From the NCBI GenBank assembly GCA_024408505.1, contig JAKSUZ010000002.1, forward strand, positions 1,337 through 65,336: a stretch of 64,000 bases of DNA. The letters are read 5' to 3'. Origin of the DNA: Bacilli bacterium (GTDB lineage: Bacteria; Bacillota_I; Bacilli_A; RFN20; CAG-826). The position numbers and the translations under genes were made by a program. The notes under the pieces were generated by a model. The model ran no database searches and had not been told where the DNA came from. It saw only the letters and a list, made by a program, of their open reading frames with translations. Below, one piece after another: positions 764 through 39,213 of this stretch (position 1 is the stretch's first letter; each line of letters starts with the position of its first letter).

Positions 764-793
764 AAACTTTTTCTCCTTAACTAACTTTATTTA

Positions 794-1930: not shown

Positions 1931-1946
1931 AAATCTCTCCTTAATA

Positions 1947-3290: not shown

Positions 3291-3364
3291 AAAAGTCTCC
3301 TTTTTATTTAGTCAACTTAACAATAACATATGATATCTATTTTGGCAATAAATGCATTTTAGAT

Positions 3365-3398
3365 ATAAAAAATAGGAAGCAATCACTTACTTCCTATT
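3365..3398 (-). terminator. Rho-independent terminator closing the upstream lipoprotein cassette
   Basis: On the minus strand: AATAGGAAG-loop-CTTCCTATT (9-bp stem) followed by TTTTTTAT, just downstream of the stop at 3425. Confidence 0.7.
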
Positions 3399-3424
3399 CT
3401 TATTGATTTTCGTTAAGAACTTAC

Positions 3425-4558: not shown

Positions 4559-4583
4559 ATTTTTTTCTCCTTAAAACTCATTA

Positions 4584-5756: not shown

Positions 5757-5777
5757 ATATTTTTCTCCTTTTAATTA

Positions 5778-7001
5778 TTAATAAGCATATAAAGAGATTT
5801 CTTCAATCCCAGTGTGAGCATAAAAATCGCCATCTTCACTAAAATTGCCATCTAGAGCGACTAATGTGTCAATTGTTAATCTACCTTCGCTATCGTAATT
5901 ACATGAACGATAGGTAACAGTTGCTTCATTGACAAATTTAGAATAGGAATCGCCAATAAATATAACTGGCTCATCTTCAACTGATTCAGAATAAGACATA
6001 ATTGTGCAGCGATCAATTTTATTCGGATTATGTTTATAATAAGATGCTGTCATTTCCATAGCCAAAACATTAGAATAAATCGTGCTTCCTCCAAAAGAAC
6101 GAGTCGCATAAGTTTCTGCACCGACCATACAATGATAGTCATCATAAGTATAATTTGAAACGTAAGTTACTTCGGTTTTATACGTTTGCATTTCTCCATC
6201 ATAATTATCAGGAAGTATTCCTCCTCCTTGTTCTGTTTCAGTTGTATAAATGGCTGTTTCTTTGATAATATCGTTGTTCTTAAAATCACGAATTATATTA
6301 AGTGTTCGAATTAAAGAATCAACTTCTTCTCCTTCTTCTCGCATAACTGGAGTGTCTTCGAATATTTCTTCAGTTAATGAATAGGTTTTATATGTGCGTG
6401 AATTTCCTTCGTAGGTATATTCTTCAGTTGAAACTGCATAAGGGATATCGATATAAGAACTACCGATAATGTCTCTACTACCATATATCGGAATGCGCGA
6501 GGCACCATCACCCAAATACTCAGCTTTAATTAAGCGATTTTGATTATCGTATTCATATTTTTCAATATTGGCTGTTACCTTGCGATAATAATCCCATGAT
6601 GAGCGGTAATTTTCTTCTTTAACGATAAATCGATAAATTAAATTTCCCCTACCATCGTACTTATTTGTGTAACTAGTAATGGTGGTCTGCATATTTTTGA
6701 CATAAGAATTATTCATATATCTAAATGCACTTTTATATTCTTCTTCCATCACAACATGATTATGACTATCGTATCTACGATAAACATAAGTCGGGGTATT
6801 GCTTGTAGCAACCGGCACATCCGCTATAGAACCGTCAACTAAATAAACTTGCCTATAAGGGTCAGGTCCAATATATTGATATATTTGGCGCTGAGTTATT
6901 TTCGCCTTATATAAACTAGACGGATCAACAGTATTAGCCGTATTAGCACAAGCAGCGCATGAAAATACTGCAAGGGCTGATAAAAGAAATACTTTTTTCA
7001 T
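5778..7001 (-). CDS. YD-repeat-containing lipoprotein, cassette type C
   Basis: MKKVFLLSALAVFSCAAC lipobox. YD-like motifs: RYDSHNHV, KYDGRGNL, YEYDNQNRL, NYDSEGRL. Confidence 0.8.
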   Translation of the reverse strand: MKKVFLLSALAVFSCAACANTANTVDPSSLYKAKITQRQIYQYIGPDPYRQVYLVDGSIADVPVATSNTPTYVYRRYDSHNHVVMEEEYKSAFRYMNNSYVKNMQTTITSYTNKYDGRGNLIYRFIVKEENYRSSWDYYRKVTANIEKYEYDNQNRLIKAEYLGDGASRIPIYGSRDIIGSSYIDIPYAVSTEEYTYEGNSRTYKTYSLTEEIFEDTPVMREEGEEVDSLIRTLNIIRDFKNNDIIKETAIYTTETEQGGGILPDNYDGEMQTYKTEVTYVSNYTYDDYHCMVGAETYATRSFGGSTIYSNVLAMEMTASYYKHNPNKIDRCTIMSYSESVEDEPVIFIGDSYSKFVNEATVTYRSCNYDSEGRLTIDTLVALDGNFSEDGDFYAHTGIEEISLYAY

Positions 7002-7086
7002 AAAAGCCTCCTTGTCTAATCAAACTTATTATAACATACGAAAATAATCTTCAACAATAAAGGCAATGTACTAAATTAATCGATAA

Positions 7087-8265
7087 TTAATATGAACCAA
7101 TGTTTTCTTCGTAATACTTGGCTAAGATATAATTTTCTCTCGGAATGTATGTTCCGCCATCTTTTTTAATATCATGAATGAGCTCTCTATTTCTTGCTCG
7201 GATATTATGAATAGTACCATCGCCACCAGTTGGAGCGCCGATCATAATTTGTGGATTAATTCTTGGTACATCCTTGTCTATCTCTTTTACGCCTACAACA
7301 AAATTATTGATGGTAGCATTAAATTCTTTACTTAATTCTCCACCTATTGAACTAATGGCGTATTCGTCCCCTTGAGCACCGGCCGGACCAAACCACCAAG
7401 CAATGCAATCAGTAAGAAAAGCTGATGTATTATTAAATTGATAACCGATTCTAAAATTATCACTATAACAATTGCTTAGTTCAGTGAAACTAGAAATTTC
7501 AAAACCGACCGATTCATCATAATTATATTTTTTACAATCACCATTATGTAGTGGATGAACATTTTTCAAAATGTTTGTGCCACCGCTGCTTAATACACCA
7601 TGAGTGACGTGACCAATACGGATATTAGTCGCACTATTATCACTACCTTCTAGCTTTAATCCATACGATGTAGCGCTATCATTACAAATAATACTCATAT
7701 CTTGAATATCAGCATCTGAAGAACCACCACCATTAACGCCTGGCGCAATCCTTAAGCCAATCTCAACGCCTTTCATTGAAACATTTTGAACTCTAGTCTC
7801 TCTTCCACCCGCAATTTCAATTCCCGCCGCTTTTCCGCTTCCATCAATAATTCCGCCAGTTAAAGAGTAAACACTACCAGGTATAGTAACTTCATTAATG
7901 CGATCAAGTCCACCCAGAGAAACCATATATAAATATTCATCTTGCCATTTTTCTAGGACTCCGCCTCTTTTTACTTGATAATTATCACTCGCTTTTAAAA
8001 TTGCATAATTTGATAATTGTAAATCGACAGATTTAGTAGGATCACCAGGCGTTAAGATTTGATGATCTAATAAATATGTTCCATCGCGAAAATATAGTGT
8101 GCGATTAGGATTATTATTAATTAATTCTTGAATCTTATCGCTACAATCACTATGTCCTGAGGTATCAACATAACTAGCAACATCGATAATGCCACTACTT
8201 TTGTTATTACATCCAATAAGAGGCGCTACTAATGTTAGTAAACATAAAAATTTTAATTTACTCAT
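7087..8265 (-). CDS. Lipoprotein with a probable right-handed beta-helix (pectate-lyase-superfamily-like) domain
   Basis: MSKLKFLCLLTLVAPLIGCN lipobox. The N-terminal pattern DKIQELINNNPNRTLYFRDGTYLL resembles the start of pectate_lyase_3-type beta-helix proteins. The body is repetitive and rich in Gly/Asn/Ser. Confidence 0.55.
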   Translation of the reverse strand: MSKLKFLCLLTLVAPLIGCNNKSSGIIDVASYVDTSGHSDCSDKIQELINNNPNRTLYFRDGTYLLDHQILTPGDPTKSVDLQLSNYAILKASDNYQVKRGGVLEKWQDEYLYMVSLGGLDRINEVTIPGSVYSLTGGIIDGSGKAAGIEIAGGRETRVQNVSMKGVEIGLRIAPGVNGGGSSDADIQDMSIICNDSATSYGLKLEGSDNSATNIRIGHVTHGVLSSGGTNILKNVHPLHNGDCKKYNYDESVGFEISSFTELSNCYSDNFRIGYQFNNTSAFLTDCIAWWFGPAGAQGDEYAISSIGGELSKEFNATINNFVVGVKEIDKDVPRINPQIMIGAPTGGDGTIHNIRARNRELIHDIKKDGGTYIPRENYILAKYYEENIGSY

Positions 8266-8273
8266 AAAGTCCC

Positions 8274-8792
8274 TTAGATTTTATATTTAACAAGAGAATG
8301 AATCTCAACTGGTTCAAGAATCTTACGAGCTTTAAGATCGGTTAATTCAATTAAAAAAGAATAACCCACTAATTTAGCACCAATCTTTTTAACCATTTTA
8401 GTCATTGCTTTGGCACTACCACCGGTTGCGAGTAAATCATCAACAATTAACACGCGATCATTTTTCTTAATCATCTTAGGAGCGATTTCTAGAGTATTAC
8501 TTCCATATTCTAAATCATAAGAAACACTAACACCGACATAAGGCAATTTGCCCGGTTTACGAGAAACTACTACACCCGCGTTTAGTAAATGCGCAACGAC
8601 TGAGCCGAATAAAAATCCTCTAGCATCTGCGCAAAGGATTTTCGTAATTTTTTTATTTTTAAATGGTTTAGCCATTAATTCGTTTGCTTCTTTAAATGCT
8701 TTTGCATTTGCAAGTAAGGGAGTAATGTCTTTAAAAGAAATACCCTTCTTTGGCCAATTCTCTCTAATTGCAATAATTTTCTTATAATCCAT
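8274..8792 (-). CDS. apt: Adenine phosphoribosyltransferase
   Basis: 172 aa. PRPP-binding motif VLIVDDLLATGGSA and typical Apt N-terminal region (FKDITPLL, ARGFLFG). Confidence 0.9.
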   Translation of the reverse strand: MDYKKIIAIRENWPKKGISFKDITPLLANAKAFKEANELMAKPFKNKKITKILCADARGFLFGSVVAHLLNAGVVVSRKPGKLPYVGVSVSYDLEYGSNTLEIAPKMIKKNDRVLIVDDLLATGGSAKAMTKMVKKIGAKLVGYSFLIELTDLKARKILEPVEIHSLVKYKI

Positions 8793-8841
8793 AATATATG
8801 CTCCTACATATATTATTTTACTCTTTTAAAAAACAACAAAA

Positions 8842-9882
8842 CTATTTCTTTTTGCCTTTTTTAACATTAGGCAAAGCTTCTAAATTAGCGTTTTTAATAA
8901 ATAAATCGTAATCAGAAACGATTCTGTTTTCTTGAATGATGCGATATTTTTCAAATTCCGATAAAGCAAATTTTATTGCCACTTCGCGTGAAACCTTCCC
9001 TGGATTATCTAATATTGCTCTACCATTAAACTGAAGTAATAAATTTAATCTTTTGATGTAATCATCCATTGTCAGCGGAACATGCTTCTCGGCCATTTCT
9101 TCGCCGAAATCTAAATACATTTCAACCAAACGGGAAAGCGAAGTTAACTCCTTCTTTTCTAAATAATTTTTTGCTATCGTAACATCGGTTTTATGAATTC
9201 TACCCCTAGGAGCATTATTCCAAGTTTTCAATCCCATATTTTCTTTTTTTGAATCGGCGCGATTTATGATAATTTCAGGTGCAGTGTTTCCTGAAACAGC
9301 ATAATGTAATTTGTTCTGAACCGTTTTAAAAAACTCCAATGTTTTATTTGAACTATTGTCATAATCAACGGCAGTAGAAAAGAGATCGGTCACTTTTTGA
9401 TATAATCTCCTTTCGCTTAATCTAATTAATCGTATTTCCTCAAGCAATTCATCATAATAATCTTTAGTAAGATAAGCACCATTGGCTAATCGAATATTAT
9501 CTAAAGCATAACCCTTAATTGTATAATTCTTGAGAACATTAATTGCCCAAATTCTAAATTCAGTAGCTTTAGATGAGTTGACTCTAAAGCCAACCGCAAT
9601 AATCATTTCAAGCGAATAAAATTTAATATCCCTTTCTACTTCTCTATCTCCTTCGTTTTGAACTATTCGAAAATTTCGAAAGGTTGCCTTCTTATTTAAT
9701 TCATTTGAAGAATATATTTCATTAATATGGTAATTGATGGTATTAACACCAGTGTCAAAAAGATCCGCTATCGACTTTTGGGTAAGCCATAAATTATCAT
9801 CATCAATCACTGAATTAATCTTGTTTTGCTTAGATTGATATGTAAATATTAACGATTCAACTAAAGCTATTTTGTTTCCCAT
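8842..9882 (-). CDS. RhuM-family (virulence-associated, Fic/DOC-context) protein
   Basis: Pattern LWLTQKSIADLF...TINYHINEIY...FRIVQxEGxREVxRxIxFYSLEMIIAVGFRVNSxKATEFRIWA is typical of the RhuM family. Start is uncertain: ATG at 9882, or TTG at 9927 as in the track. Confidence 0.6.
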   Translation of the reverse strand: MGNKIALVESLIFTYQSKQNKINSVIDDDNLWLTQKSIADLFDTGVNTINYHINEIYSSNELNKKATFRNFRIVQNEGDREVERDIKFYSLEMIIAVGFRVNSSKATEFRIWAINVLKNYTIKGYALDNIRLANGAYLTKDYYDELLEEIRLIRLSERRLYQKVTDLFSTAVDYDNSSNKTLEFFKTVQNKLHYAVSGNTAPEIIINRADSKKENMGLKTWNNAPRGRIHKTDVTIAKNYLEKKELTSLSRLVEMYLDFGEEMAEKHVPLTMDDYIKRLNLLLQFNGRAILDNPGKVSREVAIKFALSEFEKYRIIQENRIVSDYDLFIKNANLEALPNVKKGKKK

Positions 9883-9954
9883 ATTTTTAACTATATATAG
9901 AGTATCACTATATATATCAACTTTCAATATAGCTGAAAGTTTGTATTCTTTGCC

Positions 9955-9980
9955 AATAAAAAAAGATGAATTTTCATCTT
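9955..9980 (-). terminator. Rho-independent terminator after the tRNA trio
   Basis: Minus strand: AAGATGAA-AAT-TCATCTT followed by TTTTTTATT, immediately 3' of tRNA-Leu(CAA). Confidence 0.7.
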
Positions 9981-9991
9981 CTTTAATAATT

Positions 9992-10073
9992 TGGTGGCCC
10001 CAAAGGGATTTGAACCCTTATGGTTTCCCGGACGATTTTGAGTCGTCTGCGTCTACCGTTCCGCCATGGGGCC
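9992..10073 (-). tRNA. tRNA-Leu (anticodon CAA), CCA encoded
   Basis: Reverse complement is GGCCCCATGGCGGAACGGTAGACGCAGACGACTCAAAATCGTCCGGGAAACCATAAGGGTTCAAATCCCTTTGGGGCCACCA. It folds as a cloverleaf with anticodon loop CTCAAAA and a long variable arm. Confidence 0.9.
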
Positions 10074-10079
10074 ATCTAA

Positions 10080-10156
10080 TGGTGCGCTCGATGAGATTTA
10101 AACTCATGACCTTAACCTTCGGAGGGTTACACTCTATTCAGCTGAGCTACGAGCGC
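10080..10156 (-). tRNA. tRNA-Arg (anticodon CCG), CCA encoded
   Basis: Reverse complement is GCGCTCGTAGCTCAGCTGAATAGAGTGTAACCCTCCGAAGGTTAAGGTCATGAGTTTAAATCTCATCGAGCGCACCA. Anticodon stem TAACC/GGTTA, loop CTCCGAA. Confidence 0.9.
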
Positions 10157-10161
10157 GTACT

Positions 10162-10243
10162 TGGTGCAGCTATTGAGATTTGAACTCAAACGGTTTCCCA
10201 CTAGATTCTGACTCTAGCGCGTCTACCATTCCGCCATAGCTGC
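10162..10243 (-). tRNA. tRNA-Leu (anticodon CAG), CCA encoded
   Basis: Reverse complement is GCAGCTATGGCGGAATGGTAGACGCGCTAGAGTCAGAATCTAGTGGGAAACCGTTTGAGTTCAAATCTCAATAGCTGCACCA. Type II tRNA with a long variable arm. Anticodon loop GTCAGAA has an unusual G at position 32. Confidence 0.85.
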
Positions 10244-10302
10244 GTATTTATTATATCTATTAAAAATAAAGGACGCTAACTTGCGCCCTCTACCTAGATA
10301 TC

Positions 10303-10725
10303 TTATTGACCTCGTGCCACTTTGTTTACGAGACCCATATCACATTGACCAGGATATTTTTCTTTGAAGAATTTCATAACTGCTGGAATGGACTTATCAG
10401 GTAAGGACGCCACTAGACGCCGGATTTCATCTTCCGACAACAACTTTGGCAAAAACCGCAGGATGGCAGCCTTTTGTTTATCGATTAAAGAAGCCTGATC
10501 AGGTTTACCTGCAGTAATATAAGCTTGTTTTTCTTCATCTAACTCTTTACTTAACTTAGTTAAAATGCGTACGGTATCCGCATCAGTAGTCTCTTTATTG
10601 TTCGCTTTATTTTCAATACTTAATTGCATATAGCGATTAATGGCGACACTTAAAGATGCACGAGCATCGTTATCGTGTGCTTTGAGAGCTTCTATGTTCG
10701 CTTTTTTTAATTCATCAATAATCAT
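10303..10725 (-). CDS. GatB/YqeY domain-containing protein
   Basis: 140 aa. Typical YqeY pattern: ALKAHDxxxxxxLSxxxxxxxxxxIE, LSEDEIRxLV, GxxDMGLVNKV. Confidence 0.8.
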   Translation of the reverse strand: MIIDELKKANIEALKAHDNDARASLSVAINRYMQLSIENKANNKETTDADTVRILTKLSKELDEEKQAYITAGKPDQASLIDKQKAAILRFLPKLLSEDEIRRLVASLPDKSIPAVMKFFKEKYPGQCDMGLVNKVARGQ

Positions 10726-10733
10726 AAGCGCCT

Positions 10734-11798
10734 TTATATTATAGCACTAACTTTGAGCGCGCTAGTAAAAGCCCACATCAAATTATAGCCGCCGCATAAT
10801 CCATCTTGATTAAGTGCTTCACCAATAATAAATACGTTTTTCTCGCGCTTACTATTAAAGGAGGAATCGACTTCATCAAGGCTTACGCCACCGATAGTGG
10901 CGACGCTATCATTTGCGTCATAGAACCCTTTAATATGAAACACTACTTGTTTAGGATTGCCTTTCTTCTTTAAATATCGGGCTAAATCATTCACAAAATA
11001 ATTTTCAAATTTTCCATTAAATTTAACCGAAGGAAGAAAATCCACTACTACTTCAGCGTTACTTAAATGGTTGCGTAAATAAATACTCGCAGCATGATAA
11101 ATGACTATTCCACTTAAACCATCTTTTTTAAATTGAAGTTCACCATCTTCTTCAAAATATGTTTTACCTTTACTAACTAATTTCACTCTTACTTCGCGAC
11201 GTAAACCATTGACTTCTTTAGTTGATTCAATAGTCTTAATTGGAAGTAATGCTGGGTGAAGTGGATAGACTTTATATCCATGTTTACTTAAATTAAGTAC
11301 AAAACTCGCATCTGCGCCTAATTTAGGTTGGCTACCTAAACCCGTAGCGATTACTAATTTATCAAATGGATAAGTTCCTTTATCGGTAATTAATTTGTTA
11401 TTGGTGTAATCAAGCGCTTGGCATTCACTGATGAATTTAACGCCTAACTTTTTCGCCTCACTTATTAAAGTATCCGTTAACATATTCGCAGATTCACTAT
11501 ATGGATAAATGTAACCTTCATGATTAATAGTAGCGATATTATGGTTATTAAAAAATTTAATTAAAGTATGAACATTAATTTCATTAAAAAGTTTTCTTGC
11601 TCTTTCTTCATTTAGATATTGACCTTTAATATCAAGAAGATTGCACATATTGCATTTTCCGTTTCCAGTTGCGCGTAATTTCTTTCCTAATTTATTATTA
11701 CGGTCAATAACTAAAACATCATAACGAGGATTCTTTTCTTTAATGGCTAGAGCGGATACTAGTCCGCTCGCACCACCACCAACAATAATGATTTTCAT
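10734..11798 (-). CDS. NAD(P)/FAD-dependent oxidoreductase, HI0933/YhiN/BaiN-like flavoprotein
   Basis: N-terminal dinucleotide fold IIIVGGGASGL, then LGKKLRATGNGKCNMCN and a C-terminal GGVSLDEV...IGEALNQDGLCGGYNL pattern. Confidence 0.75.
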   Translation of the reverse strand: MKIIIVGGGASGLVSALAIKEKNPRYDVLVIDRNNKLGKKLRATGNGKCNMCNLLDIKGQYLNEERARKLFNEINVHTLIKFFNNHNIATINHEGYIYPYSESANMLTDTLISEAKKLGVKFISECQALDYTNNKLITDKGTYPFDKLVIATGLGSQPKLGADASFVLNLSKHGYKVYPLHPALLPIKTIESTKEVNGLRREVRVKLVSKGKTYFEEDGELQFKKDGLSGIVIYHAASIYLRNHLSNAEVVVDFLPSVKFNGKFENYFVNDLARYLKKKGNPKQVVFHIKGFYDANDSVATIGGVSLDEVDSSFNSKREKNVFIIGEALNQDGLCGGYNLMWAFTSALKVSAII

Positions 11799-13711
11799 TA
11801 TTCGAGTTCAAATGCTCCTGTATATAGTTGATAATATACACCTTTTTGATCAATTAGTTGTTTATGAGTGCCACGTTCAATAATTTTTCCATGGTCAAGA
11901 ACCATAATTGCATCACTATTTTGAACAGTGCTTAAACGGTGAGCGATTACAAAAGTAGTTCTGCCTTCCATAATCTTATCCATACCTTTTTGAACTAATA
12001 ATTCAGTTCTAGTATCAATACTACTAGTTGCTTCATCTAAGATCATGACCGGAACATTCGCGACGGCGGCTCGAGCAATATTAATTAATTGTCTTTGACC
12101 TTGTGATAAGTTAGCACCATCGCCACTAAGCATCGTATCAAAGCCTTGTGGTAAGCGAGTAATAAAGTCATAAGCATTCGCTACCTTAGCGGCTTCAATT
12201 ACTTCTTCATCGGTCGCGGTTAATTTACCATAACGGATATTATCTTTAACGGTACCGGTAAATAAATTCGTATCTTGTAAAACGATTCCTAAGGATTTTC
12301 TTAATGAAGATTTTTTAATCTTATTAATATTGATTCCATCATAACGAACTTTACCATCTTCAATATCATAGAAGCGGTTAATTAAATTAGTAATTGTAGT
12401 TTTACCTGCTCCGGTTGCACCAACAAAGGCAATCTTTTCACCTGGACGAGCAGAAATCGAAATATCTTTTAATACTAAGTTAGGTGGATTATAAGCAAAG
12501 TTAACATGGGAAAGTAAAATATCACCTTCAAGTGGTACATATGTAACAGTGCCGTCAGCTTTATGTGGATGTTTCCACGCAAAGAATTTAGTTTCTTCAT
12601 TGGTCTCGTAGAAAGTATGATCATCACGATATTTAATATTTACTAAAGTAACATAACCATCATCTTTCTCGCTTTGTTCATCCATTAAATCGAAAGCGCG
12701 AGAAGCGCCAGCTGCGCCAAGGAAGATCATTGATAATTGTTGTGACAAGTTATTGACGTTATTAGTGAACATTCTTGCCATCATTAAGAATGAAACGATA
12801 GTGTAAACACCAACTGGTAAACCACTCATCGAAACATTAGGAACTTTAAAGACAATTAAGAGTGCACCAACAATGGCTAAAATAACATAGAGTAAGTTAC
12901 CAATGTTACCAATAACTGGCGCAAGCATATTACCAGCTGTGTTAGCAATAACACCATCATCTGCTAATTCTTTATTAAGTTTGGCGAAATCTTCTTGGCT
13001 CTTATCTTCATGCGAGAACACTTTAATAACTTTTAAACCATTGATCGCTTCTTCAATGTGGCCTTCAACAATACCTAACTTCTCTTGTTGTTTTCTAAAG
13101 TATTTACCACTTCTTGTACCAATCTTTTTGGCGGTGAAGAAAATGATTACTGTGGTAAATAACACAATGAGTGTTAAATATAGTGAATAATAAAGCATAA
13201 CGAATATTAAGGAAGTGACAATAACACCGGTTTGGAATACTCCAGGAAGTGATTCACGGACAATTTGACGAATAGTATCAATATCGTTTGTGTATATTGA
13301 CATAATATCGCCACGTTTGTGAGTGTCAAAATATCTAATCGGCAATGTTTCCATATGACTAAACATTGCTTTACGTGTTTCGTTCAAGAAGTCTTGTGTA
13401 ACAATCGCCATTGCTACGTTACATATCACTGCACTAATAATACCTTCAATGTAAATACCACCCATTAAACATAGGTAGAATATCATTTGTTGCCAGAATT
13501 CATCACCAGTAATAGTGCCTTTAGTGAACTCTTCAATTGTGGAAGTAATTGAACCAACTAAAACCGGTGAACAAATGGTACTAGCTGACATTGTGATAAT
13601 AAAGACTAAGCAAAGAATTACTCCAAGCTTATGCTTTTGCCACACCATTTTAATTAAACGTTTGATGGTGCCTTTCTTGGCTTTACCAACACTAGCTCGC
13701 ATGAGTGGCAT
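11798..13711 (-). CDS. ABC exporter, fused permease/ATPase (heterodimer subunit B)
   Basis: Six N-terminal TM helices. Walker A GATGAGKTT, signature LSQGQRQL, Walker B ILDEATS. The likely start is ATG 13711 after a GGAGGTG RBS (track start 13732). It overlaps the upstream partner. Confidence 0.9.
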   Translation of the reverse strand: MPLMRASVGKAKKGTIKRLIKMVWQKHKLGVILCLVFIITMSASTICSPVLVGSITSTIEEFTKGTITGDEFWQQMIFYLCLMGGIYIEGIISAVICNVAMAIVTQDFLNETRKAMFSHMETLPIRYFDTHKRGDIMSIYTNDIDTIRQIVRESLPGVFQTGVIVTSLIFVMLYYSLYLTLIVLFTTVIIFFTAKKIGTRSGKYFRKQQEKLGIVEGHIEEAINGLKVIKVFSHEDKSQEDFAKLNKELADDGVIANTAGNMLAPVIGNIGNLLYVILAIVGALLIVFKVPNVSMSGLPVGVYTIVSFLMMARMFTNNVNNLSQQLSMIFLGAAGASRAFDLMDEQSEKDDGYVTLVNIKYRDDHTFYETNEETKFFAWKHPHKADGTVTYVPLEGDILLSHVNFAYNPPNLVLKDISISARPGEKIAFVGATGAGKTTITNLINRFYDIEDGKVRYDGININKIKKSSLRKSLGIVLQDTNLFTGTVKDNIRYGKLTATDEEVIEAAKVANAYDFITRLPQGFDTMLSGDGANLSQGQRQLINIARAAVANVPVMILDEATSSIDTRTELLVQKGMDKIMEGRTTFVIAHRLSTVQNSDAIMVLDHGKIIERGTHKQLIDQKGVYYQLYTGAFELE

Positions 13712-15491
13712 GAGTGGCACCTCCGTTATCATCTTTTACGCGGTTTTGTGTGTGATAGACTTCTTGATAAATCTTATTTGTTTTTAAAAGTTCCTCATGG
13801 GTTCCAATTTGATCAATGTGACCATTATCCATAACAATAATTTTGGTCGCATCTTCCACTGAAGAAGTTCTTTGCGCAATAACAATCTTAGTAGTATTGG
13901 GTAAATCATCTTTTAAAGCATTACGAATCAACGCATCGGTTTTAGTATCAACCGCACTGGTCGAGTCATCTAAGATTAAAATCTTTGGTTTCTTAAGCAA
14001 GGCGCGTGCGATACATAAACGTTGGCGTTGACCACCGCTTACGTTTGTACCGCCTTGTTCAATATAAGTTTCGTATTTCTTTGGGAAACCTTGAACGAAT
14101 TCATCCGCTTGCGCAATCTTTGCCGCATTAACAATTTCTTCCTCGGTTGCATTTAAATCGCCCCAACGAAGGTTATCTGCGATGGTTCCTGAGAAAAGCA
14201 CATTCTTTTGTAACACTACTGCGACATTATCACGAAGTGTTCTTAAATCATATTGATGAACTGGATGGCCACCAACAATTAATTCGCCAGTAGTAATATC
14301 GTATAAACGAGAAATTAAACTAACTAAAGTAGATTTCCCACTTCCAGTTGAACCGATGATTCCAATAAAGTCACCCGATTTAATATCAAGATTAATTTCA
14401 TCTAGTGCATTTCTTTTAGCGCTCTTTGAATATTTAAAAGTAACTTTGTTAAATTTTACGGAACCATCTTTTAACTGCATGATTGGATCGGTTGGATTAT
14501 GAATTGTGGTTTCTTCACGTAAAACTTCTGCAATGCGTCTCACGCTTTCTAAGCTCATTGATAACATACCTAAAATGATGGTTACCATGAGCAATGCCAT
14601 TAAGATTTGTACACCATAGGTAAGTAACGCTGATAATTGACCCGGTCCTAAATCACCTTTACCACCATTTTGATAAATTAAATAAGCACCAAGTCCGCAA
14701 ACAAGCATATTCACGATGTGAATAGATAAGTTCATAATTGGAGAAGCAAAAGAAATAATGACTTCTGCTTTCTTAAATTCTTCACAAATAGCATCACTGG
14801 CTTTGCCCATCTTTTGAGTTTCATAATCTTCACGGACAAAGTTCTTTACCACACGAATGCCAGCTACGTTTTCTTGAATCGATTCATTTAATTTATCATA
14901 GCGTTTAAATACACGAGTAAAAATCTTGGTAGCTTTTCTTAACATAAATAAGAAACCAAGACAGACAAGTGGAATAACTCCAATGAAGATCCATGCCATT
15001 ACACCACCAAGCACAAAGCTTAAAACGGTAGCGAAGATAAACATTAACGGAGCGCGAACAATAATTCTAATGCCTAAGTTAAATGTCATAAATGTATTGT
15101 TGATATCAGTGGTTAAACGAGTAACTAAACTAGAAGTTGAGAAACGATCAATGTTAGCAAATGAGAATGATTCAATTTGTTTAAAAACATCCGCACGAAG
15201 GTTTTGCGCTAAACCAACCGAAGCTTTCGCTGCGGTCTTTGCGCCAAATATGCCACAAAGTAAACTAATAACAGCGATCGCTAAGAAAATTCCGGTGTAA
15301 ACTCCAATCTGGTTTAAATCAATTGAACCACCGGGTAAATCCGCCTTTTGAATAATCGTGACAAAAATACTCATAATGTAAGGAAGCGCACAATCGCACG
15401 CTGCTTCAACCATCATAAGTAAAGGAGTTAAAATCGCGTAGATTTTATACTCTCTTAAGCTCTGTAGAATCAATTTAAAATTTTTCAACAT
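13692..15491 (-). CDS. ABC exporter, fused permease/ATPase (heterodimer subunit A)
   Basis: TM domain plus Walker A GSTGSGKST, signature VSGGQRQRL, Walker B ILILDDSTSAVD. Confidence 0.9.
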   Translation of the reverse strand: MLKNFKLILQSLREYKIYAILTPLLMMVEAACDCALPYIMSIFVTIIQKADLPGGSIDLNQIGVYTGIFLAIAVISLLCGIFGAKTAAKASVGLAQNLRADVFKQIESFSFANIDRFSTSSLVTRLTTDINNTFMTFNLGIRIIVRAPLMFIFATVLSFVLGGVMAWIFIGVIPLVCLGFLFMLRKATKIFTRVFKRYDKLNESIQENVAGIRVVKNFVREDYETQKMGKASDAICEEFKKAEVIISFASPIMNLSIHIVNMLVCGLGAYLIYQNGGKGDLGPGQLSALLTYGVQILMALLMVTIILGMLSMSLESVRRIAEVLREETTIHNPTDPIMQLKDGSVKFNKVTFKYSKSAKRNALDEINLDIKSGDFIGIIGSTGSGKSTLVSLISRLYDITTGELIVGGHPVHQYDLRTLRDNVAVVLQKNVLFSGTIADNLRWGDLNATEEEIVNAAKIAQADEFVQGFPKKYETYIEQGGTNVSGGQRQRLCIARALLKKPKILILDDSTSAVDTKTDALIRNALKDDLPNTTKIVIAQRTSSVEDATKIIVMDNGHIDQIGTHEELLKTNKIYQEVYHTQNRVKDDNGGATHATHAS

Positions 15492-15796: not shown

Positions 15797-16027
15797 TTAC
15801 TTTTTAATTTTGGCGCGAATTGCACTATATAAATCATTTACTTTTTTAAGATTTTTTAATTCGTCACTTGTGAACTCGATTCCGAACTCATCTTCTAATT
15901 CAAGTAATAGTTCTACGACATCTAAAGAATCAAGACCTAATTCACGTAATTCTTTTTCTGGATTGATGGCTGTTAGTTTTAATTTTTTACATAAAACTGA
16001 CTCAACCTTTTTAATTGCTTCTTCCAT
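15797..16027 (-). CDS. acpP: Acyl carrier protein
   Basis: LGLDSLDVVELLLELEDEFGIEF contains the DSL phosphopantetheine attachment motif. The likely start is the internal ATG at 16027 (MEEAIKKVE). Confidence 0.85.
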   Translation of the reverse strand: MEEAIKKVESVLCKKLKLTAINPEKELRELGLDSLDVVELLLELEDEFGIEFTSDELKNLKKVNDLYSAIRAKIKK

Positions 16028-16089: not shown

Positions 16090-16437
16090 CTACTCATATA
16101 GTCCGATTACTACACTTCTTTTGATTGATATTTTGTTATCGGTTTTTTGATAAATAATCGCTTTATATGGTTTTTCAATAACGTAATAGAAAGTATCGCC
16201 CTTTTTTACCGCCGTACAATCTTCCATAGCGCAGTAAATATCGGCATTTATTTCCTTTTTAACATATGAGCGAATTGATTCAGTAACTCCACCACTTTTA
16301 CTGATGTAATAGCCGACTGTAGCTGACATTGAATCAAGTTCACCATAAATCATTTCGGTTGCAACTAAATCGCTTGATAATAAAATAGCAACACTGGCGA
16401 CTAGCATTGAAAACATTAAAATAATTCGTTTACCCAT
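16090..16437 (-). CDS. Small N-terminally anchored protein, last gene of the unknown envelope operon
   Basis: One N-terminal TM helix (RIILMFSMLVASVAILL) followed by a ~90-aa soluble domain. Start candidates at 16437, 16443 and 16455 overlap the upstream stop. Confidence 0.55.
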   Translation of the reverse strand: MGKRIILMFSMLVASVAILLSSDLVATEMIYGELDSMSATVGYYISKSGGVTESIRSYVKKEINADIYCAMEDCTAVKKGDTFYYVIEKPYKAIIYQKTDNKISIKRSVVIGLYE

Positions 16438-17095
16438 GAACATACTCCTCAACAATGATAATTGTCACAATGATGACTAACATCACAATAATCGCGGTTC
16501 CAATAATGGCAGTCGCTTTAACTAATTCATATTGACGGTTGTTATCCCGCTCTTCATCATCATCCACAACTTTTTTTAATTTTAAATACGATTCATTAAA
16601 ATGAAGAAGATTTTCTTTACTAGCGTTTTCTTTATATCGATATAAGCTAATCATCACCTCTTCAATCAATACACTAGAAAAGTTTTTAGCGAGATTTAGA
16701 TAAGGTGATAATGATTGATCCTTTTCAATTTCGGTAAAAAATGTTTCTAGTTTTTGATTCATTTTTAAGGATGCTCTTTCTTTTAAATTCATTAGAGCAT
16801 CTTTTACATTAACCTGATTGTTTATATCTTGATATAAATAGCGTAGAAGAATAGTTAATTCTTTAATTTGATCAGTTACATTTTTACTATAAAGAAATAA
16901 ATATCGATAAAATGCAACTGCATTCACTAACACAATTAAAAAGATAAAGGGAATAAATAACAAATTATTTTTGGTAAAAATAAATGCTACCACCATTGTC
17001 GCTACAAGAAATACATTAATAATTAGAATTATGGTTAATTCTTTTTTGAAATTGATGTTAGCGCGATTAATGGCAACTTTAATATTATTCTTCAT
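16430..17095 (-). CDS. Polytopic membrane protein with a central helical cytoplasmic domain (TadB/TadC- or GspF-like topology, unverified)
   Basis: Two N-terminal TM helices, a ~110-aa charged helical segment and a C-terminal TM helix. The likely start, ATG 17095 (MKNNIKVAINR), overlaps the upstream stop by 11 nt. Confidence 0.55.
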   Translation of the reverse strand: MKNNIKVAINRANINFKKELTIILIINVFLVATMVVAFIFTKNNLLFIPFIFLIVLVNAVAFYRYLFLYSKNVTDQIKELTILLRYLYQDINNQVNVKDALMNLKERASLKMNQKLETFFTEIEKDQSLSPYLNLAKNFSSVLIEEVMISLYRYKENASKENLLHFNESYLKLKKVVDDDEERDNNRQYELVKATAIIGTAIIVMLVIIVTIIIVEEYVHG

Positions 17096-17783
17096 AGCGT
17101 TTAATCCTCCCACGTGTGGCTCGCATAAATAAATGAATACTGAATAAGAAGAAAACAAAATAGAAGATGATGCCGATTAGATAAATTCCGGTTTTAGTAA
17201 TTTGATCAAAATAACTATTAACCGCGAAGCGGATAACAATTAAAACCGAGAAAGAAATAATCCATAATAATGAAAACTCTACTAATGCTCTCCAAATACT
17301 TTTTTGTAAAACTTTTTGGTTTAAAAGATAATTATTGTTTTCTTCTAATAAAAACGAAATTGCCTTATCATGCTCTTCGCTTTTGTTATTACAAATCGAA
17401 ATTGTTTTTAAAAAGAGTTGATAAAGTGAAGACGAAAAATAATCAGTTAAACGTTCTAATTTTTCTTCACCTTTAAATTCTTCAAGCATCTTTACTTGTT
17501 CTTTTAAAGAAGCGGATACATTTTCTTGCGCAGCAAGCAATGCATTATCAAGCGAATAATCAACGCTATAAGCAAGAAAGAAATCATGGATAAAAGTTGT
17601 TAAATCTTTATTGTGCATTAATTGCAGTCTTTCTTTACGTTTGAATAAAAATTCGTAAATAACAAAATACGCTAAATAGATGACCATGGTCCCAATTAAG
17701 AAATAAAGATTATTAGTTAAATAATAACCAGCTAAACCCGCTAATAAAGAAACCATTATATAAATTACATAATCAAAAATCAT
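17085..17783 (-). CDS. Polytopic membrane protein with a central helical cytoplasmic domain (same architecture as 16430..17095)
   Basis: Two N-terminal TM helices, a ~120-aa helical segment and two C-terminal TM helices. ATGA overlap with the upstream gene. Confidence 0.55.
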   Translation of the reverse strand: MIFDYVIYIMVSLLAGLAGYYLTNNLYFLIGTMVIYLAYFVIYEFLFKRKERLQLMHNKDLTTFIHDFFLAYSVDYSLDNALLAAQENVSASLKEQVKMLEEFKGEEKLERLTDYFSSSLYQLFLKTISICNNKSEEHDKAISFLLEENNNYLLNQKVLQKSIWRALVEFSLLWIISFSVLIVIRFAVNSYFDQITKTGIYLIGIIFYFVFFLFSIHLFMRATRGRIKRYEE

Positions 17784-18172
17784 AGATCTGTCTCCTCAAT
17801 TTCATATGTCGTGCTTTTGTAGTAATCGTTTGCAAATGGGACCGCTGCCCGTAGAGAAATTCTTACACCGGTGACATAACGATCAGTCATTTCTTCTTTG
17901 CTTTTGCTATCAAAATAATAGAAACCAACTTGGAATTTATCCACATAGTGCGATAAATTATTTTTTAAATGTTCAATTGAAGTAGCTTCCACAATTTGCG
18001 TATCATAAACTGGAGTCGGAAGTGGACCTTCAATATCAGTCACAATCCAACTAGCCGGTAAAGAATAATTTAACGTAGTGAATGCATTATCAATTGATTG
18101 AAAGGTCGTAGTAGTAAATAACGCTACACCAGAAAAAGAAATAATAAATAAAGCGAAAATCATTAAGATCAT
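17780..18172 (-). CDS. Small N-terminally anchored protein
   Basis: MILMIFALFIISFSGVALF TM anchor plus a ~105-aa soluble domain. 4-nt overlaps on both sides. Confidence 0.55.
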   Translation of the reverse strand: MILMIFALFIISFSGVALFTTTTFQSIDNAFTTLNYSLPASWIVTDIEGPLPTPVYDTQIVEATSIEHLKNNLSHYVDKFQVGFYYFDSKSKEEMTDRYVTGVRISLRAAVPFANDYYKSTTYEIEETDL

Positions 18173-19212
18173 ATAATAACCTCTACGATTTTCTCGCGAA
18201 TGTTAACTTCCTCGTCTTGTCGCATAGTGTCACAAAATTCACTATCTTCACAATCACCGAAAAACTTTTTCATATAAGTCATCATGAATTTACCTTTAAT
18301 GGTGAAATCAGAATGACTATGAACTTCTAGTTCAATATAACACGGGAGAAACTTTAATTCCGCTGCGCCTTTAAACGGTAACATCAAATTATGATAAGGA
18401 AGATAGTTTTCTTTTTGAATTAACGAACTATCGTGAGTAATTGGATCATAATAAATGGTCGGAGCGAAAGTAAAGTAACATTCATCCCCGTCTTTATTTA
18501 ACGTTAACGGGATATATCGATACATCGATTCTCCGATCGGAAAATCAGGAAACAAATTATATCGATCATAAAACGCGAAGCGTAATTCACCATTTAAGGT
18601 ATTATCTAATCCATTACGATATTTAAAACGTAAATAAGAAATATCTAAATCGTAATAAACTTCATTAACTCGTAAGTCCTCGAAATTTAAGAAACTAAAA
18701 GCATCTTCATAATGGTAATCCTGACTATGATCTAAATATGTGCTTTCTTTGATGTAGCCGGTTGAGAATTCTTGCCCATTCGTGGTTTCACTAATTTCAA
18801 AAGAGTCAATGGTCTTAGTGTTATACGCTAAGGTCGCACGATAAGTACCTTCGCCATTAATTCTTGCTTCGCATACAAAAGTAATTGGCGAATTATCATC
18901 AAGGTCACGAATATTAATTTCGTTACAACCATATAATAAGACACTTTGTCGAATAGAAAGAGATGTGATAGCGCTACTACCACAAAGATGTGAATTACCA
19001 TTTTGATCTATCCAGGTGTAGTTGTAGTAACATGATTTATCAACCTTACGAACAAGGATATCAATATAAGCTGATAATTTAAGCGTTCCTTTAGAAGGAT
19101 TTTCATCCGTAATCCCAAATGCCACAAACTGAATACTAGGTGCATTAGCGGTCGTCATACTACAACAAGTTATCGCCAATGGAAGAAAAATAAATCTAAG
19201 CACTTTTTTCAT
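18169..19212 (-). CDS. Secreted or lipid-anchored protein of unknown function
   Basis: MKKVLRFIFLPLAITCCS is a signal peptide with possible lipobox Cys. AAGGAG RBS 9 nt upstream. 347 aa, Cys-rich, with no motif I recognise. Confidence 0.6.
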   Translation of the reverse strand: MKKVLRFIFLPLAITCCSMTTANAPSIQFVAFGITDENPSKGTLKLSAYIDILVRKVDKSCYYNYTWIDQNGNSHLCGSSAITSLSIRQSVLLYGCNEINIRDLDDNSPITFVCEARINGEGTYRATLAYNTKTIDSFEISETTNGQEFSTGYIKESTYLDHSQDYHYEDAFSFLNFEDLRVNEVYYDLDISYLRFKYRNGLDNTLNGELRFAFYDRYNLFPDFPIGESMYRYIPLTLNKDGDECYFTFAPTIYYDPITHDSSLIQKENYLPYHNLMLPFKGAAELKFLPCYIELEVHSHSDFTIKGKFMMTYMKKFFGDCEDSEFCDTMRQDEEVNIREKIVEVII

Positions 19213-19567
19213 AGTTTAGTTCTCCTTCTTCATTGATGGCATGAGTTTTCTTCAAGTTTTCATAAAATAAATTAATCGCTTCTTCACGAAATCTCTTATA
19301 TTGGCGTTTGGTATAAAACTCTTCCCACCAAAACGAGTAGTTTTGATAGAAGAAATCACACTTAATGATTTTGCGAAGATGGTATTGCATCGCAAAATAC
19401 GCGGTCTCCACCGCTAAAATAAACTTCTCCCATGGTAGATGTCTACGGCACGCCGTAGATACTGCATCATAGAATTCTAGTTCTTGATTATAATCGGGGA
19501 AGAAATTGTTCACCCTTAGTAAATGGTGATAAGTCTCCGCCACATTTTGAATTGTTCTTTCTTTCAT
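19196..19567 (-). CDS. Small cytoplasmic protein, first gene of the unknown envelope operon
   Basis: ATG at 19567 is preceded by a GGAGG RBS (the track start at 19579 lies inside the RBS). Rich in aromatic residues, no TM segment, no recognised motif. Confidence 0.5.
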   Translation of the reverse strand: MKERTIQNVAETYHHLLRVNNFFPDYNQELEFYDAVSTACRRHLPWEKFILAVETAYFAMQYHLRKIIKCDFFYQNYSFWWEEFYTKRQYKRFREEAINLFYENLKKTHAINEEGELNYEKSA

Positions 19568-19629
19568 AATAGCCTCCATTTGGGAATATATCCCTTATTA
19601 GGTTATTAAAGAAAAAGGCCAAAAATCCT

Positions 19630-19720
19630 CACGGAGGCCTCTTTTATATTTATTCTAAATATAACTTTTTTTCGAGTTTTTGGAAAAGTTAACCAAATCA
19701 CGCATTAGTTAACTTTTTTT
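19630..19720 (-). promoter_or_regulatory. 91-nt conserved intergenic element, copy A (upstream of the unknown envelope operon)
   Basis: Aligns without gaps to 40367..40457. A 36-nt core (19666..19701) differs at one position. Two GTTAAC palindromes (19688-19693, 19708-19713) are spaced 14 nt apart. Confidence 0.6.
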
Positions 19721-21286: not shown

Positions 21287-22435
21287 ATGAAAAAACTAGG
21301 TTTATTAGTAATGCCGTTAATGGCTGTTTCGTTTTTAGCGAGTTGTAATAGTGGCGGAGACAATCCTGAAAAAGATCTAGAATTCACTGCTAGTACTGCG
21401 GCTATATTAGATATATCTAGAACAATAGCAAATATTGCTTTAGATTGGACACCAATTGATCATTCTATTGAATGTAGTAATTTTACTTTTACTCTTAATA
21501 GTCAATCTCATATTAAATCAACAATAACACCAGGCGAAATTGGTTCTCGCCCATTACATTTGACTATAACATTTGATGAGCCGTTAAGCGAAGGCGATAA
21601 TGGCGATTTAAAGTTTCACTACAATGATATAACCGCTAAAAAGGAAGGCGATGCTGAAATTGATGGGATTGATATTAAGAGAACATTAGAAGACTGTACT
21701 TGGAAAGAAATTAACGAAATATCTATGAGTGGCAAGGCAGCAGAAACCTTTAAGATTGGCGACACTAAGACTGTTAAGGTCAATAATAAAAATCATAAAG
21801 TAAGAATTATTGGTTTTAATCACGATTATAGTGAACTACCAGACGATGGTAGCGCCCCAGATTCAAACAAAATGTTAGGCATTACTTTTGAATTCGCGAA
21901 TGTAATTACTAAAAACGATGGAAGTCCTGCTACTACTCCTTGGAATCAAGAAGATGCGAAAAATTATGATTATCGTAGTTCTACTCTTAATACTTTCTTA
22001 AATAACGATGTATTAAATATGCTTCCTAGTAGTGGTGACCCAAATAATCCTGATTTAAGAGAAGTTATTAAACCAGTTGATAAGAAGGTTGGCGTGTCCA
22101 CTGATGAAGGCTCTACTTATAACGCGATTAGTTTTGATGGTGACGCTCATCCATATCCTTATCTTTTTCCATTAGCATATGATGAAATAACCGTTGAGGA
22201 AGAGACAGGTGTTCCTTCGGATGAAGGTAACACCTACCAATATTATAAAAATTACAAATACAAAAAATATCGAGTTAAAAAGACAGTTGGTAGCGAGGAA
22301 GGAGGAGTATATTTTCTTCGTTCGCCTTCTACTAAAAGTAGTGGTGAACGCGCTACGTGGATTACTACGATTGGTGAGTTTGCCTTCCATTATGTTGAGT
22401 TGCCACGTGATCTCGCTCCCGCTTTCTGTATTTAA
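21287..22435 (+). CDS. Surface lipoprotein with a C-terminal DUF6273-like domain (unverified)
   Basis: MKKLGLLVMPLMAVSFLASC lipobox. C-terminal pattern YFLRSPS...APAFCI. The first 60 nt match the start of the 34321..35973 gene at 53 of 60 positions. Confidence 0.7.
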   Translation: MKKLGLLVMPLMAVSFLASCNSGGDNPEKDLEFTASTAAILDISRTIANIALDWTPIDHSIECSNFTFTLNSQSHIKSTITPGEIGSRPLHLTITFDEPLSEGDNGDLKFHYNDITAKKEGDAEIDGIDIKRTLEDCTWKEINEISMSGKAAETFKIGDTKTVKVNNKNHKVRIIGFNHDYSELPDDGSAPDSNKMLGITFEFANVITKNDGSPATTPWNQEDAKNYDYRSSTLNTFLNNDVLNMLPSSGDPNNPDLREVIKPVDKKVGVSTDEGSTYNAISFDGDAHPYPYLFPLAYDEITVEEETGVPSDEGNTYQYYKNYKYKKYRVKKTVGSEEGGVYFLRSPSTKSSGERATWITTIGEFAFHYVELPRDLAPAFCI

Positions 22436-38556: not shown

Positions 38557-39213
38557 TTATCTTTTTTCATAATTTTTAACTTTCGCGACAATTAAAAAAT
38601 GTAATCGTTTGGGTTGCCCTTTTTTAATTAAAGAAAGTGAGGCTTTTAGAGTCGCACCAGTAGTAGATATATCATCCACAAATAATACTTTTTTATTATG
38701 AATCTTTTCTAAATTAGAAATTTCTAATCGATTAATAACTTTATTTCTTTCTTCTTTATTTAAATCAGATTGTTTATAGTTAGTTTTCTTTTTGATAATG
38801 GGAAGAATATTTAAATTTAATACCTTAAAAATCTCGATTACATGATTAAATCCTCGTTCTTGATCATCTCTTTCTTCACTAGGAGCAGGCACTAAGATAT
38901 AACCTCGATATTTTCTAGTTAATTCATCTTTAAAATAATTTAAAAATGCTTTCGCTAGTTCAATATCTCCACATCCTTTTAAGGTATAAATCTTTTCTTT
39001 CATATAATCCGAATAAGTAAATAAATATTCTCCACTTACTCCATTAATCTTTTCACTTTTTCTAATTGGAGAAAGTAAAGATAGACAACGATCACAAATA
39101 TTAATATCCGGATGAAGTAAAGCATGCAGATTATCAATCTTAATTTCGTTAAAGCACATTATGCAATACGATTTTTTATCTTGTAAGATAGGTGTTATCA
39201 AGCTTGATGGCAT
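38557..39213 (-). CDS. comFC: ComF-family phosphoribosyltransferase-like competence protein
   Basis: N-terminal CxxC...CxxC zinc ribbon and C-terminal PRTase motif VLFVDDISTTGATL. Overlaps comFA. Confidence 0.8.
   Translation of the reverse strand: MPSSLITPILQDKKSYCIMCFNEIKIDNLHALLHPDINICDRCLSLLSPIRKSEKINGVSGEYLFTYSDYMKEKIYTLKGCGDIELAKAFLNYFKDELTRKYRGYILVPAPSEERDDQERGFNHVIEIFKVLNLNILPIIKKKTNYKQSDLNKEERNKVINRLEISNLEKIHNKKVLFVDDISTTGATLKASLSLIKKGQPKRLHFLIVAKVKNYEKR

Follow-up and report, generated by a model that had tools for sequence, protein, structure and literature searches.

Six consecutive genes on the minus strand, here called g1 to g6, occupy positions 19567-16090 of a 64-kb stretch of contig JAKSUZ010000002.1 (positions 1,337 to 65,336) from the Bacilli bacterium assembly GCA_024408505.1. 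This whole stretch is referred to below as the window. The genes form an operon of membrane, exported and cytoplasmic proteins whose likely role is considered here. A first-pass annotation, made from the sequence and a list of its open reading frames (ORFs), had described the six genes as consecutive and translationally coupled. All six ORFs were found, and the overlaps of 17, 4, 4, 11 and 8 nucleotides (nt) at the successive junctions hold with the start codons chosen by that annotation. In transcription order the genes and the lengths of their products in amino acids (aa) are:

19196-19567, minus strand: g1, 123 aa
18169-19212, minus strand: g2, 347 aa
17780-18172, minus strand: g3, 130 aa
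17085-17783, minus strand: g4, 232 aa
16430-17095, minus strand: g5, 221 aa
16090-16437, minus strand: g6, 115 aa

The start of g1 at 19567 has a GGAGG sequence 5 nt before it. An independent gene call at the orthologous locus L002 gave the same starts and overlaps, the products there being 123, 346, 130, 232, 221 and 115 aa. The order g1 to g6 is kept in at least six related contigs, so that the operon is neither a chance string of ORFs nor confined to one strain, an outcome that the first-pass annotation had listed as refuting its reading. Close relatives (g4 identity 33-78%) carry the same six genes with ylqF-rnhB upstream and an acyl carrier protein (ACP) gene downstream. Scans of the six window proteins against Pfam, NCBIfam and PHROG gave a match for g1 alone, and a literature search found no description of the chromosomal cluster. 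A prophage or defence origin was rejected as there were no PHROG matches (the PADLOC defence library was not searched), and an origin from an integrated conjugative element was rejected on account of the housekeeping flanks and the lack of VirB4, VirD4 or a relaxase.

The identity of g4 and g5 is central to the reading of the operon. g4 has two N-terminal and two C-terminal transmembrane segments (TMs) around residues ~47-165, and g5 has two N-terminal TMs and one C-terminal TM; in each protein the TMs enclose a soluble domain of ~110-130 aa. The same design had been claimed for both in the first pass. This stands for the two-plus-two topology of g4 but not in full for g5, which has a single C-terminal TM rather than two. 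An exhaustive profile search placed g4 in a family of 218 representative clusters, nearly all of 225-260 aa, and a contig scan with a 13-sequence profile of the family gave 4 loci. The AlphaFold 2 (AF2) model of g4 reached a predicted local distance difference test (pLDDT) value of 95, compared with 69 in an earlier run with a shallow alignment. A hidden Markov model (HMM) search of the PDB with the g4 profile gave nothing significant.

Two proteins of the B. badius plasmid pPM400, Bb_F1 and Bb_F2, provide the link to a known family. These proteins (~240 aa) flank the best-matching ATPase on pPM400 and bear the name 'type II secretion system F family protein' from the Prokaryotic Genome Annotation Pipeline (PGAP). 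Their scores against PF00482, the type II secretion system F (T2SSF) domain, are 25.7 bits for Bb_F2 and 24.6 bits for Bb_F1, the gathering score being 25.2. The g4 profile matches Bb_F2 over its full length, including the GGD motif (E=8.5e-17, 58 bits), and the g5 profile matches Bb_F1 at E=8e-9. Since Bb_F2 and Bb_F1 are themselves T2SSF proteins by PGAP name, and Bb_F2 by PF00482 score as well, g4 and g5 are assigned by profile homology as divergent single-domain T2SSF proteins, TadB-like and TadC-like. Within the g4 family, PF00482 is weakly matched by 4 of 140 members (best E=4e-4), and two of ten members scanned separately reach it at E 0.4-1, with alignments that cover the whole domain in the register expected. 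g4 and g5 align with each other in hhalign (probability 69%, E=4.6e-5) and are fused in L006 as a 399-aa protein, P0170; judged by sequence, g5 is a distant paralogue of g4. The TadB/TadC/GspF platform design proposed in the first-pass annotation is thus borne out through transitive profile homology, direct Pfam and Foldseek searches having come back blank.

The cluster is larger in relatives outside the clade of the window. At L001, L006, L044, L045, L052 and L053 the gene order is g1-g2-g3-T2SSE ATPase-g4, with g5 next wherever the contig continues; the ATPase, of 314-369 aa, lies between g3 and g4 in 6/6 sampled loci outside the clade. The loci that were read to the end of the cluster (L006, L044 and L045) continue with g6, then a pilin-like protein of 53-66 aa and then the ACP gene. 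This small protein begins with M[GS]E[IL]KG-Q[IL]LGI[IM]L (for example MGEIKG-QILGIIL), and its sequence suggests a pilin-like product, a mini-pilin with a class-III-like signal. The relatives' ATPase scores best against VirB11-family and TadA-family models, below their cut-offs, and reaches 49-54 bits against NF041000, the ComGA equivalog model, which has a cut-off of 300.

No T2SSE ATPase was found by tblastn in the 64-kb window, and none is present at L002-L005 or L007-L010. Nor does the window hold a class-III-signal pilin motif, a TadA/CpaF ATPase, a Flp-type pilin or a prepilin peptidase, so the first observation that no secretion ATPase or pilin is encoded locally is correct across its 64 kb. 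The 4-nt overlap of g3 and g4 leaves no room for an ATPase remnant. Within the g4 family, conservation is highest at the motif E-Q-G-G-D (EQGGD), presumably the counterpart of the GE-SG-L motif of T2SSF proteins. Its GG is found in 123-124 of 127 members outside the window clade and in 0 of 13 inside it, and the presence or absence of GG tracks that of an adjacent ATPase exactly in every sampled locus.

The loss of ATPase, pilin and GG motif would be expected if the six genes were what is left of a Tad-like cluster or an integrated conjugative element, decaying and without function. When the window is compared with L007 or L002, however, the ratio of non-synonymous to synonymous substitution (dN/dS) is 0.03-0.15 for all six genes at saturated dS, with g1 and g6 the best conserved (0.03-0.05). 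The reading frames are intact, the overlaps are identical across species, the promoter element described below is conserved, and the housekeeping flanks, ylqF-rnhB upstream and ACP downstream, are stable. Decay is thus highly improbable. The reduced six-gene operon is, on these dN/dS values, judged to be functional and under purifying selection rather than decaying. It is best described from its gene content as a derived, reduced, lineage-specific form of the chromosomal cluster, which is widespread among uncultured Tenericutes-like gut Bacilli. The cluster belongs to the type-IV-filament superfamily and is not a new class of machine; the 'entirely new envelope machine' entertained in the first pass gives way to a reduced member of that superfamily, of which a fuller form with ATPase and mini-pilin exists in relatives.

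A second set of relatives is found on conjugative plasmids. The best matches of the relatives' ATPase in a plasmid collection are CpaF/VirB11-family ATPases of Gram-positive conjugative plasmids (p37-type at 1e-24), and the gene order around these plasmid ATPases is the same as in the chromosomal cluster. In pLS20 the genes concerned are 36 (126 aa, with an N-terminal TM), 37 ('VirB11'), 38 (268 aa), 39 (243 aa), 40 (120 aa) and 41 (47 aa), of which only 37 is named, genes 36 and 38-41 being listed as unknown (PMC8557374). In a database of about 1,900 ORFs, the g4, g5 and g6 profiles single out exactly p38, p39 and p40, in the same order. The g4 profile matches pLS20-type p38 at 1.3e-8, that of g5 matches p39 at 9.5e-6 (Listeria) and 2.5e-3 (Bacillus), and that of g6 matches the p40 proteins of Bacillus and Listeria at 5e-5. 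By this profile match g6 is assigned as the homologue of pLS20 gene 40, and it could be a pseudopilin-like accessory protein. In pPM400 of B. badius (L048) positions 231-14939 hold a VirB2-type pilin of a type IV secretion system (T4SS), VirD4, VirB4 and a PC4/YdbC single-stranded-DNA-binding protein, together with the T2SSE ATPase between two T2SSF proteins; from its gene content this conjugation region is a mixed T4SS/Tad-like arrangement.

The remaining membrane-associated and exported products are less easily placed. g3 and g6 each have one N-terminal TM, in keeping with their first description as N-terminally anchored, and the absence of the prepilin motif G-[FM]-T-L-x-E from their N-termini was likewise correctly noted. 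Neither protein had a Pfam match at E<=1 beyond chance level; TadE (PF07811), a family named in the first-pass annotation, was matched by none of the six products, nor was any other Pfam family. g3 agrees with p36 of pLS20 in size, topology and position (that of the gene directly upstream of the ATPase in relatives), with no HMM-detectable similarity between the two. g2 has one N-terminal hydrophobic segment and 10 Cys. It had been called a signal-peptide or lipobox protein: the N-terminal signal is upheld, but the lipobox (LAITC) is confined to the closest relatives, distant orthologues having a signal peptide or anchor. Orthologues of g2 occur in every related locus searched; there is no Pfam, NCBIfam or PHROG match, and no counterpart in the plasmid modules. 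g2 is therefore predicted to be an exported protein specific to the chromosomal clusters, and a lipoprotein in the window clade.

The first gene of the operon encodes a putative regulator. The initial label for g1, an aromatic-rich cytoplasmic protein, is right as to hydropathy and composition (no TM segment and 20% F/Y/W) but incomplete, for g1 also falls in the MG284/MPN403 family and may be ArpU-like. Against NCBIfam NF045770, the MG284/MPN403 C-terminal domain, the window protein reaches 36.7 bits (E=3e-9), 0.6 short of the cut-off of 37.3, and 22 of the 24 g1-family members match this model (best E=2e-21). The ArpU model TIGR01637 is matched by six of the 24 (best E=2.2e-7), the window g1 not being among them, and one member matches phrog_248 'transcriptional activator' at 1e-5. 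A profile search of the PDB with g1 gave nothing significant, the only hit being sigma28 at E=1.2. On these matches g1 is classed as a member of the MG284/MPN403 family, putatively ArpU/RinA-like, and is probably a small transcription activator.

Upstream of g1 lies an element that recurs before comFA, as the first-pass annotation had remarked. The features of the two copies, and the blocks that flank the palindrome in three genomes, are:

19646-19713, minus strand: shared element, operon copy, upstream of g1
19688-19713, minus strand: inverted repeat of the operon copy, GTTAAC-N14-GTTAAC, A/T-flanked
core 19646-19662, minus strand: palindrome of the operon copy, TTATATTTA-GAA-TAAATATAA
operon copy, minus strand: sigma70-like pair, -35 TTTCCA / -10 TATATT
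downstream of the operon-copy palindrome, minus strand: conserved block CCTCCGTG.GGA
40381-40451, minus strand: shared element, second copy, upstream of comFA
40426-40451, minus strand: inverted repeat of the comFA copy, GTTAAC-N14-GTTAAC
40381-40402, minus strand: palindrome of the comFA copy, ATATTTATAC-TT-GTATAAATAT
39176-40333, minus strand: comFA, homologues named ComFA
38557-39213, minus strand: comFC
palindrome flank in the window: CCTCCGTG.GGA
palindrome flank in JAZLFE: TTTTTCGTGTAAAAA...GAAwTTTCG..CATTTTTC
palindrome flank in JAKSUV: ATTCGCGTTTT

This element is genuine: its 36-nt core has exactly two occurrences in the 64 kb, before g1 and before comFA, where 0.00 would be expected, and the alignment of the two upstream regions spans about 95 nt. 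The palindrome ATATTTA-N-TAAATAT is likewise present in two copies (0.11 expected). comFA and comFC, the motor genes of DNA uptake, lie in the conserved order comFA-Pribosyltran(comFC)-secA, and one ComFA homologue from this lineage bears the label 'Tenericutes bacterium'. The element is kept upstream of the orthologous operons in L007 and L002; the palindrome is found before the operon in L007, L009 and L010 and before comFA in L049, L050 and L051. L008 and L049 belong to one metagenome-assembled genome (MAG), JAZLFE, and L009 and L051 to another, JAKSUV. In both MAGs the palindrome, together with a genome-specific flanking block, precedes operon and comFA alike, which extends the pairing seen in the window to two further genomes. 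The flanks are alike between operon and comFA within each genome and unlike across genomes, the pattern to be expected of a regulatory site that is shared and co-evolves. From these cis elements, common to both promoters in three genomes, we infer that the operon is co-regulated with comFA-comFC. g1, by its leading position in the operon and its ArpU/RinA-type family matches, would be the obvious candidate regulator of the shared promoter. Scanning metagenomes for the promoter core yielded 33 chance matches and no additional member of the regulon.

The same element bears on the suggestion that the operon encodes a Tad-like system for adhesion or secretion unrelated to DNA, in which case the element shared with comFA would reflect a general regulator, such as one responding to growth phase or stress, or would be a repeated intergenic sequence. 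Tad systems mostly mediate adherence, the element does hold a sigma70-like promoter, and the Cys-rich exported protein g2 could be an adhesin. Against this, the element stands at only these two promoters in 64 kb. In three genomes its flanks, which are particular to each genome, vary in step at operon and comFA, and this speaks for a dedicated regulon. Furthermore, there is no pilin gene in the clade's operon, and hence no adhesive fibre is encoded there. A role in adhesion or secretion is thus considered unlikely.

Several other features were observed around the two promoters. Rfam searches of the 5' leaders gave no match. At 19580-19625, and in the leaders of L002, L007 and L008, a short GC-rich hairpin (GGGATATATTCCC and similar) precedes the g1 Shine-Dalgarno sequence; RNAalifold gives it 4 pairs with one compensatory change, a weak covariation support. 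In L009 (7890-8208) and the same region of L010, both MAGs from horse faeces, ~330 nt of non-coding DNA with no Rfam match separate the palindrome from g1, and may represent an extended leader or an insertion. On the plus strand at 40596-40957, between the comFA element and rpiB, lie a 77-aa ribbon-helix-helix-like ORF (MKETITLSISKEEKALLMKKAKAQRLSLTSYIRLV...) and an ORF for a very basic 42-aa peptide, overlapping by 1 base, perhaps a pair of antitoxin-like or mobilisation type.

Taken together, the operon is most plausibly a reduced derivative of a Tad/'VirB11'-type cluster that serves as the envelope module of a competence or DNA-transfer regulon, a reading to which a probability of roughly 0.55 is given. 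A role in DNA transfer is rated likeliest because the link to comFA-comFC, the plasmid relatives in conjugation operons and the sigma20 regulon of M. genitalium all point there, and the operon is accordingly classed, on sequence evidence, as probably a competence-regulon membrane module for DNA transfer. The mycoplasma connection runs through g1. By its NCBIfam family name MG_284 is a g1-family protein, and by their locus numbers MG_285 and MG_286 lie between it and MG_287, which we take to be the ACP gene. In M. genitalium, sigma20 induces MG_285 and MG_286 by 16-18-fold along with recA/ruvAB, and its overexpression permits DNase-resistant gene transfer (PMC6105099). Tad pili are known to serve transformation in Micrococcus (PMC4322843), and ComFA and ComFC are described as forming the DNA transport complex with ComEC (PMC12663950).

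In the proposed mechanism, g4 and g5 would form a platform in the membrane, with g2, g3 and g6 outside it, giving a six-protein membrane and surface complex. This complex would belong to a DNA-uptake or DNA-transfer regulon as the counterpart of the ComG module, passing DNA to ComEC/ComFA/ComFC. g1 would probably activate the shared promoter. The complex may either borrow an unlinked ATPase and pilin or work without them.

Alternatively, the module may serve to pass DNA from cell to cell, through mating of a conjugation-like kind or mating-pair formation, and not to take up free DNA. The closest outside relatives of the ATPase, g4, g5 and g6 are indeed found in conjugation operons, near VirD4, VirB4 and VirB6-like genes, and MG_285/286, beside the g1-family gene MG_284, belong to the sigma20 regulon for horizontal gene transfer. 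However, VirB4, VirD4 and relaxase genes are absent from the window and from every chromosomal relative locus, in spans of up to 20 kb, and no other conjugation gene is present in these loci. In addition, the partner in the cis element, comFA-comFC, acts in the import of free DNA, and the housekeeping context and vertical inheritance of the cluster do not suit a conjugative system. Cell-to-cell transfer is thus considered rather unlikely.

A number of observations weigh against the reading of the operon as a reduced Tad/'VirB11'-type DNA-transfer module. The T2SSF assignment of g4 and g5 is only transitive, since a direct Pfam search with either protein gave no PF00482 match at E<=1 and no significant match was obtained with Foldseek in the PDB. 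In the latter search the pLDDT-95 model of g4 gave a best E of ~2 and no T2SSF chain, although a whole-model search may be insensitive for an all-helical membrane protein. For g2 and g3, no homologue with a known function could be detected. The AT-rich palindrome overlaps the -10-like box, and part of the similarity between the two upstream regions could be that of a generic promoter. Finally, we know of no type-IV-filament machine that works without an ATPase and a pilin.

The last point touches on a bolder version of the DNA-transfer reading. A complex of the type-IV-filament-derived proteins g4 and g5 with g2, g3 and g6, freed of its own ATPase and pilin and under an MG284-type, ArpU-like activator, might survive in wall-less or near-wall-less Bacilli as the envelope component dedicated to the DNA-transfer regulon. 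This is regarded as speculative and rather doubtful. If such an ATPase-independent complex exists, MG_284-MG_286 (MPN403-405), located ahead of the ACP gene, would be the last that remains of it, and the membrane apparatus behind the sigma20-dependent gene transfer of mycoplasmas, hitherto unknown, would be identified. On pLS20-type plasmids, the orphan 'VirB11' module would in that case represent a Tad-like filament machine at work in Gram-positive conjugation.

The gene that follows the operon is of some interest, being a conserved neighbour of the cluster:

15797-16027, minus strand: acyl carrier protein (ACP) gene, downstream of the cluster

L002, L004, L006, L044 and L045 each have a PP-binding gene after the cluster. 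The ACP gene is probably transcribed on its own, since directly upstream of it, at 16076-16049 on the minus strand, lies a near-consensus extended -10 promoter (TTGAGA-16-TGnTATAAT, 11/12 matches) of strong sigma70 type. It probably stands outside the machine itself.

Elsewhere in the window, five consecutive lipoprotein genes lie at 794-7001 on the minus strand, in two alternating paralogous families as judged by eye:

794-2062, 3425-4558 and 4584-5756, minus strand: lipoprotein family one
1947-3290 and 5778-7001, minus strand: lipoprotein family two

The run looks like the surface-protein expansion typical of Mollicutes-like genomes. Two further lipoproteins, at 21287-22435 (plus strand; a DUF6273 protein by its NCBI name) and 34321-35973 (minus strand), have near-identical signal peptides, MKKLGLLVMPLMAVSFLASC and MKKLGLLVMPLMTISLLASC, and are otherwise different. 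ARAGORN called a tRNA-Asn (anticodon ATT) at 50681-50756 on the plus strand, within a minus-strand gene at 50227-51156. This call is probably a false positive because Rfam does not report it.

The cluster is unusual in its extreme divergence, its Mollicutes-like host, its maintained form without ATPase or pilin, and its bridges to the pLS20 'VirB11' module and to the mycoplasma sigma20 regulon. Mycoplasmas and other Mollicutes have been reported to lack all type-IV-filament genes, and Mollicutes have served as a negative control (PMC3244431); by contrast, a Tenericutes-like gut lineage is seen here to carry a Tad/VirB11-type cluster that is conserved, highly divergent and missed by standard domain searches. 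Genes 38 and 39 of pLS20, hitherto listed as 'unknown' (PMC8557374), are assigned as T2SSF-type platform proteins. Gram-positive conjugation systems of the pLS20 kind 'appear to lack a pilus' (PMC11730352); in the light of the present assignments they may encode a Tad-like filament module. The form that lacks ATPase and pilin and is yet under selection amounts to a natural experiment on what platform and accessory proteins might do alone. The cis element shared with comFA-comFC, along with the link to the MG284 family and sigma20, yields testable hypotheses on DNA uptake and exchange in wall-less bacteria.

Set beside known systems, the cluster resembles the pLS20-type plasmid module, equivalents of which occur on Listeria, Enterococcus and B. 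badius plasmids. The two are collinear: an N-anchored protein of 126-132 aa, the ATPase, a protein of ~267 aa with two plus two TMs, one of ~243 aa with TMs at both ends, an N-anchored protein of ~115-120 aa and a single-TM protein of ~47-64 aa. Homology is detectable at the HMM level between the ATPase and p37, g4 and p38, g5 and p39, and g6 and p40. In marked contrast to the plasmid module, however, the window cluster is chromosomal and vertically inherited among housekeeping genes. Neither the ATPase nor the small protein is encoded in it, and it has g1 and g2 in addition, while VirB4, VirD4, VirB6 and a relaxase are missing from the chromosomal cluster in general.

The Tad (type IVc) system comprises TadA/CpaF, TadB, TadC, Flp, TadE/F and TadV. 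Shared with it are a pair of separately encoded T2SSF platform proteins, g4 and g5, each with a single domain and ~220-250 aa long, and the small N-anchored accessory proteins and, in relatives, a short TadA/VirB11-type ATPase directly upstream of the platform genes and a pilin-like protein of ~50-60 aa downstream, with a short leader ending in G. The window differs in lacking an ATPase, a pilin, TadZ, a prepilin peptidase and a TadE-domain protein. Its proteins give no direct Pfam T2SSF match and the T2SSF-type GG motif has been lost. g1 (the regulator) and g2 (the exported protein) are absent from Tad loci, and the pilin-like protein of relatives lacks the Flp G/xxxxEY motif.

Parallels with ComG are also apparent. 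The operon has an element in common with comFA-comFC, much as ComK or ComX boxes are common to comG and comF; relatives show the order ATPase, platform, small N-anchored proteins; and the fused platform of L006 is a two-domain protein like ComGB. On the other hand, there is no ComGA-type equivalog, the NF041000 score of the relatives' ATPase being far below the cut-off, no G-F/M-T-L-x-E prepilin motif is present, the platform is split over two genes, and the accessory proteins are others.

The last parallel is with MG_284-MG_286 (MPN403-405) of mycoplasmas. The regulator there is sigma20 and not the shared palindrome. Nevertheless, the window g1 has the MG284/MPN403 C-terminal domain (NF045770), and an ACP gene lies directly downstream of the window cluster, as MG_287 presumably does in M. 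genitalium. Furthermore, the sigma20 gene-transfer regulon to which MG_285/286 belong may be seen, by analogy, as a counterpart of the link between the operon and comFA.

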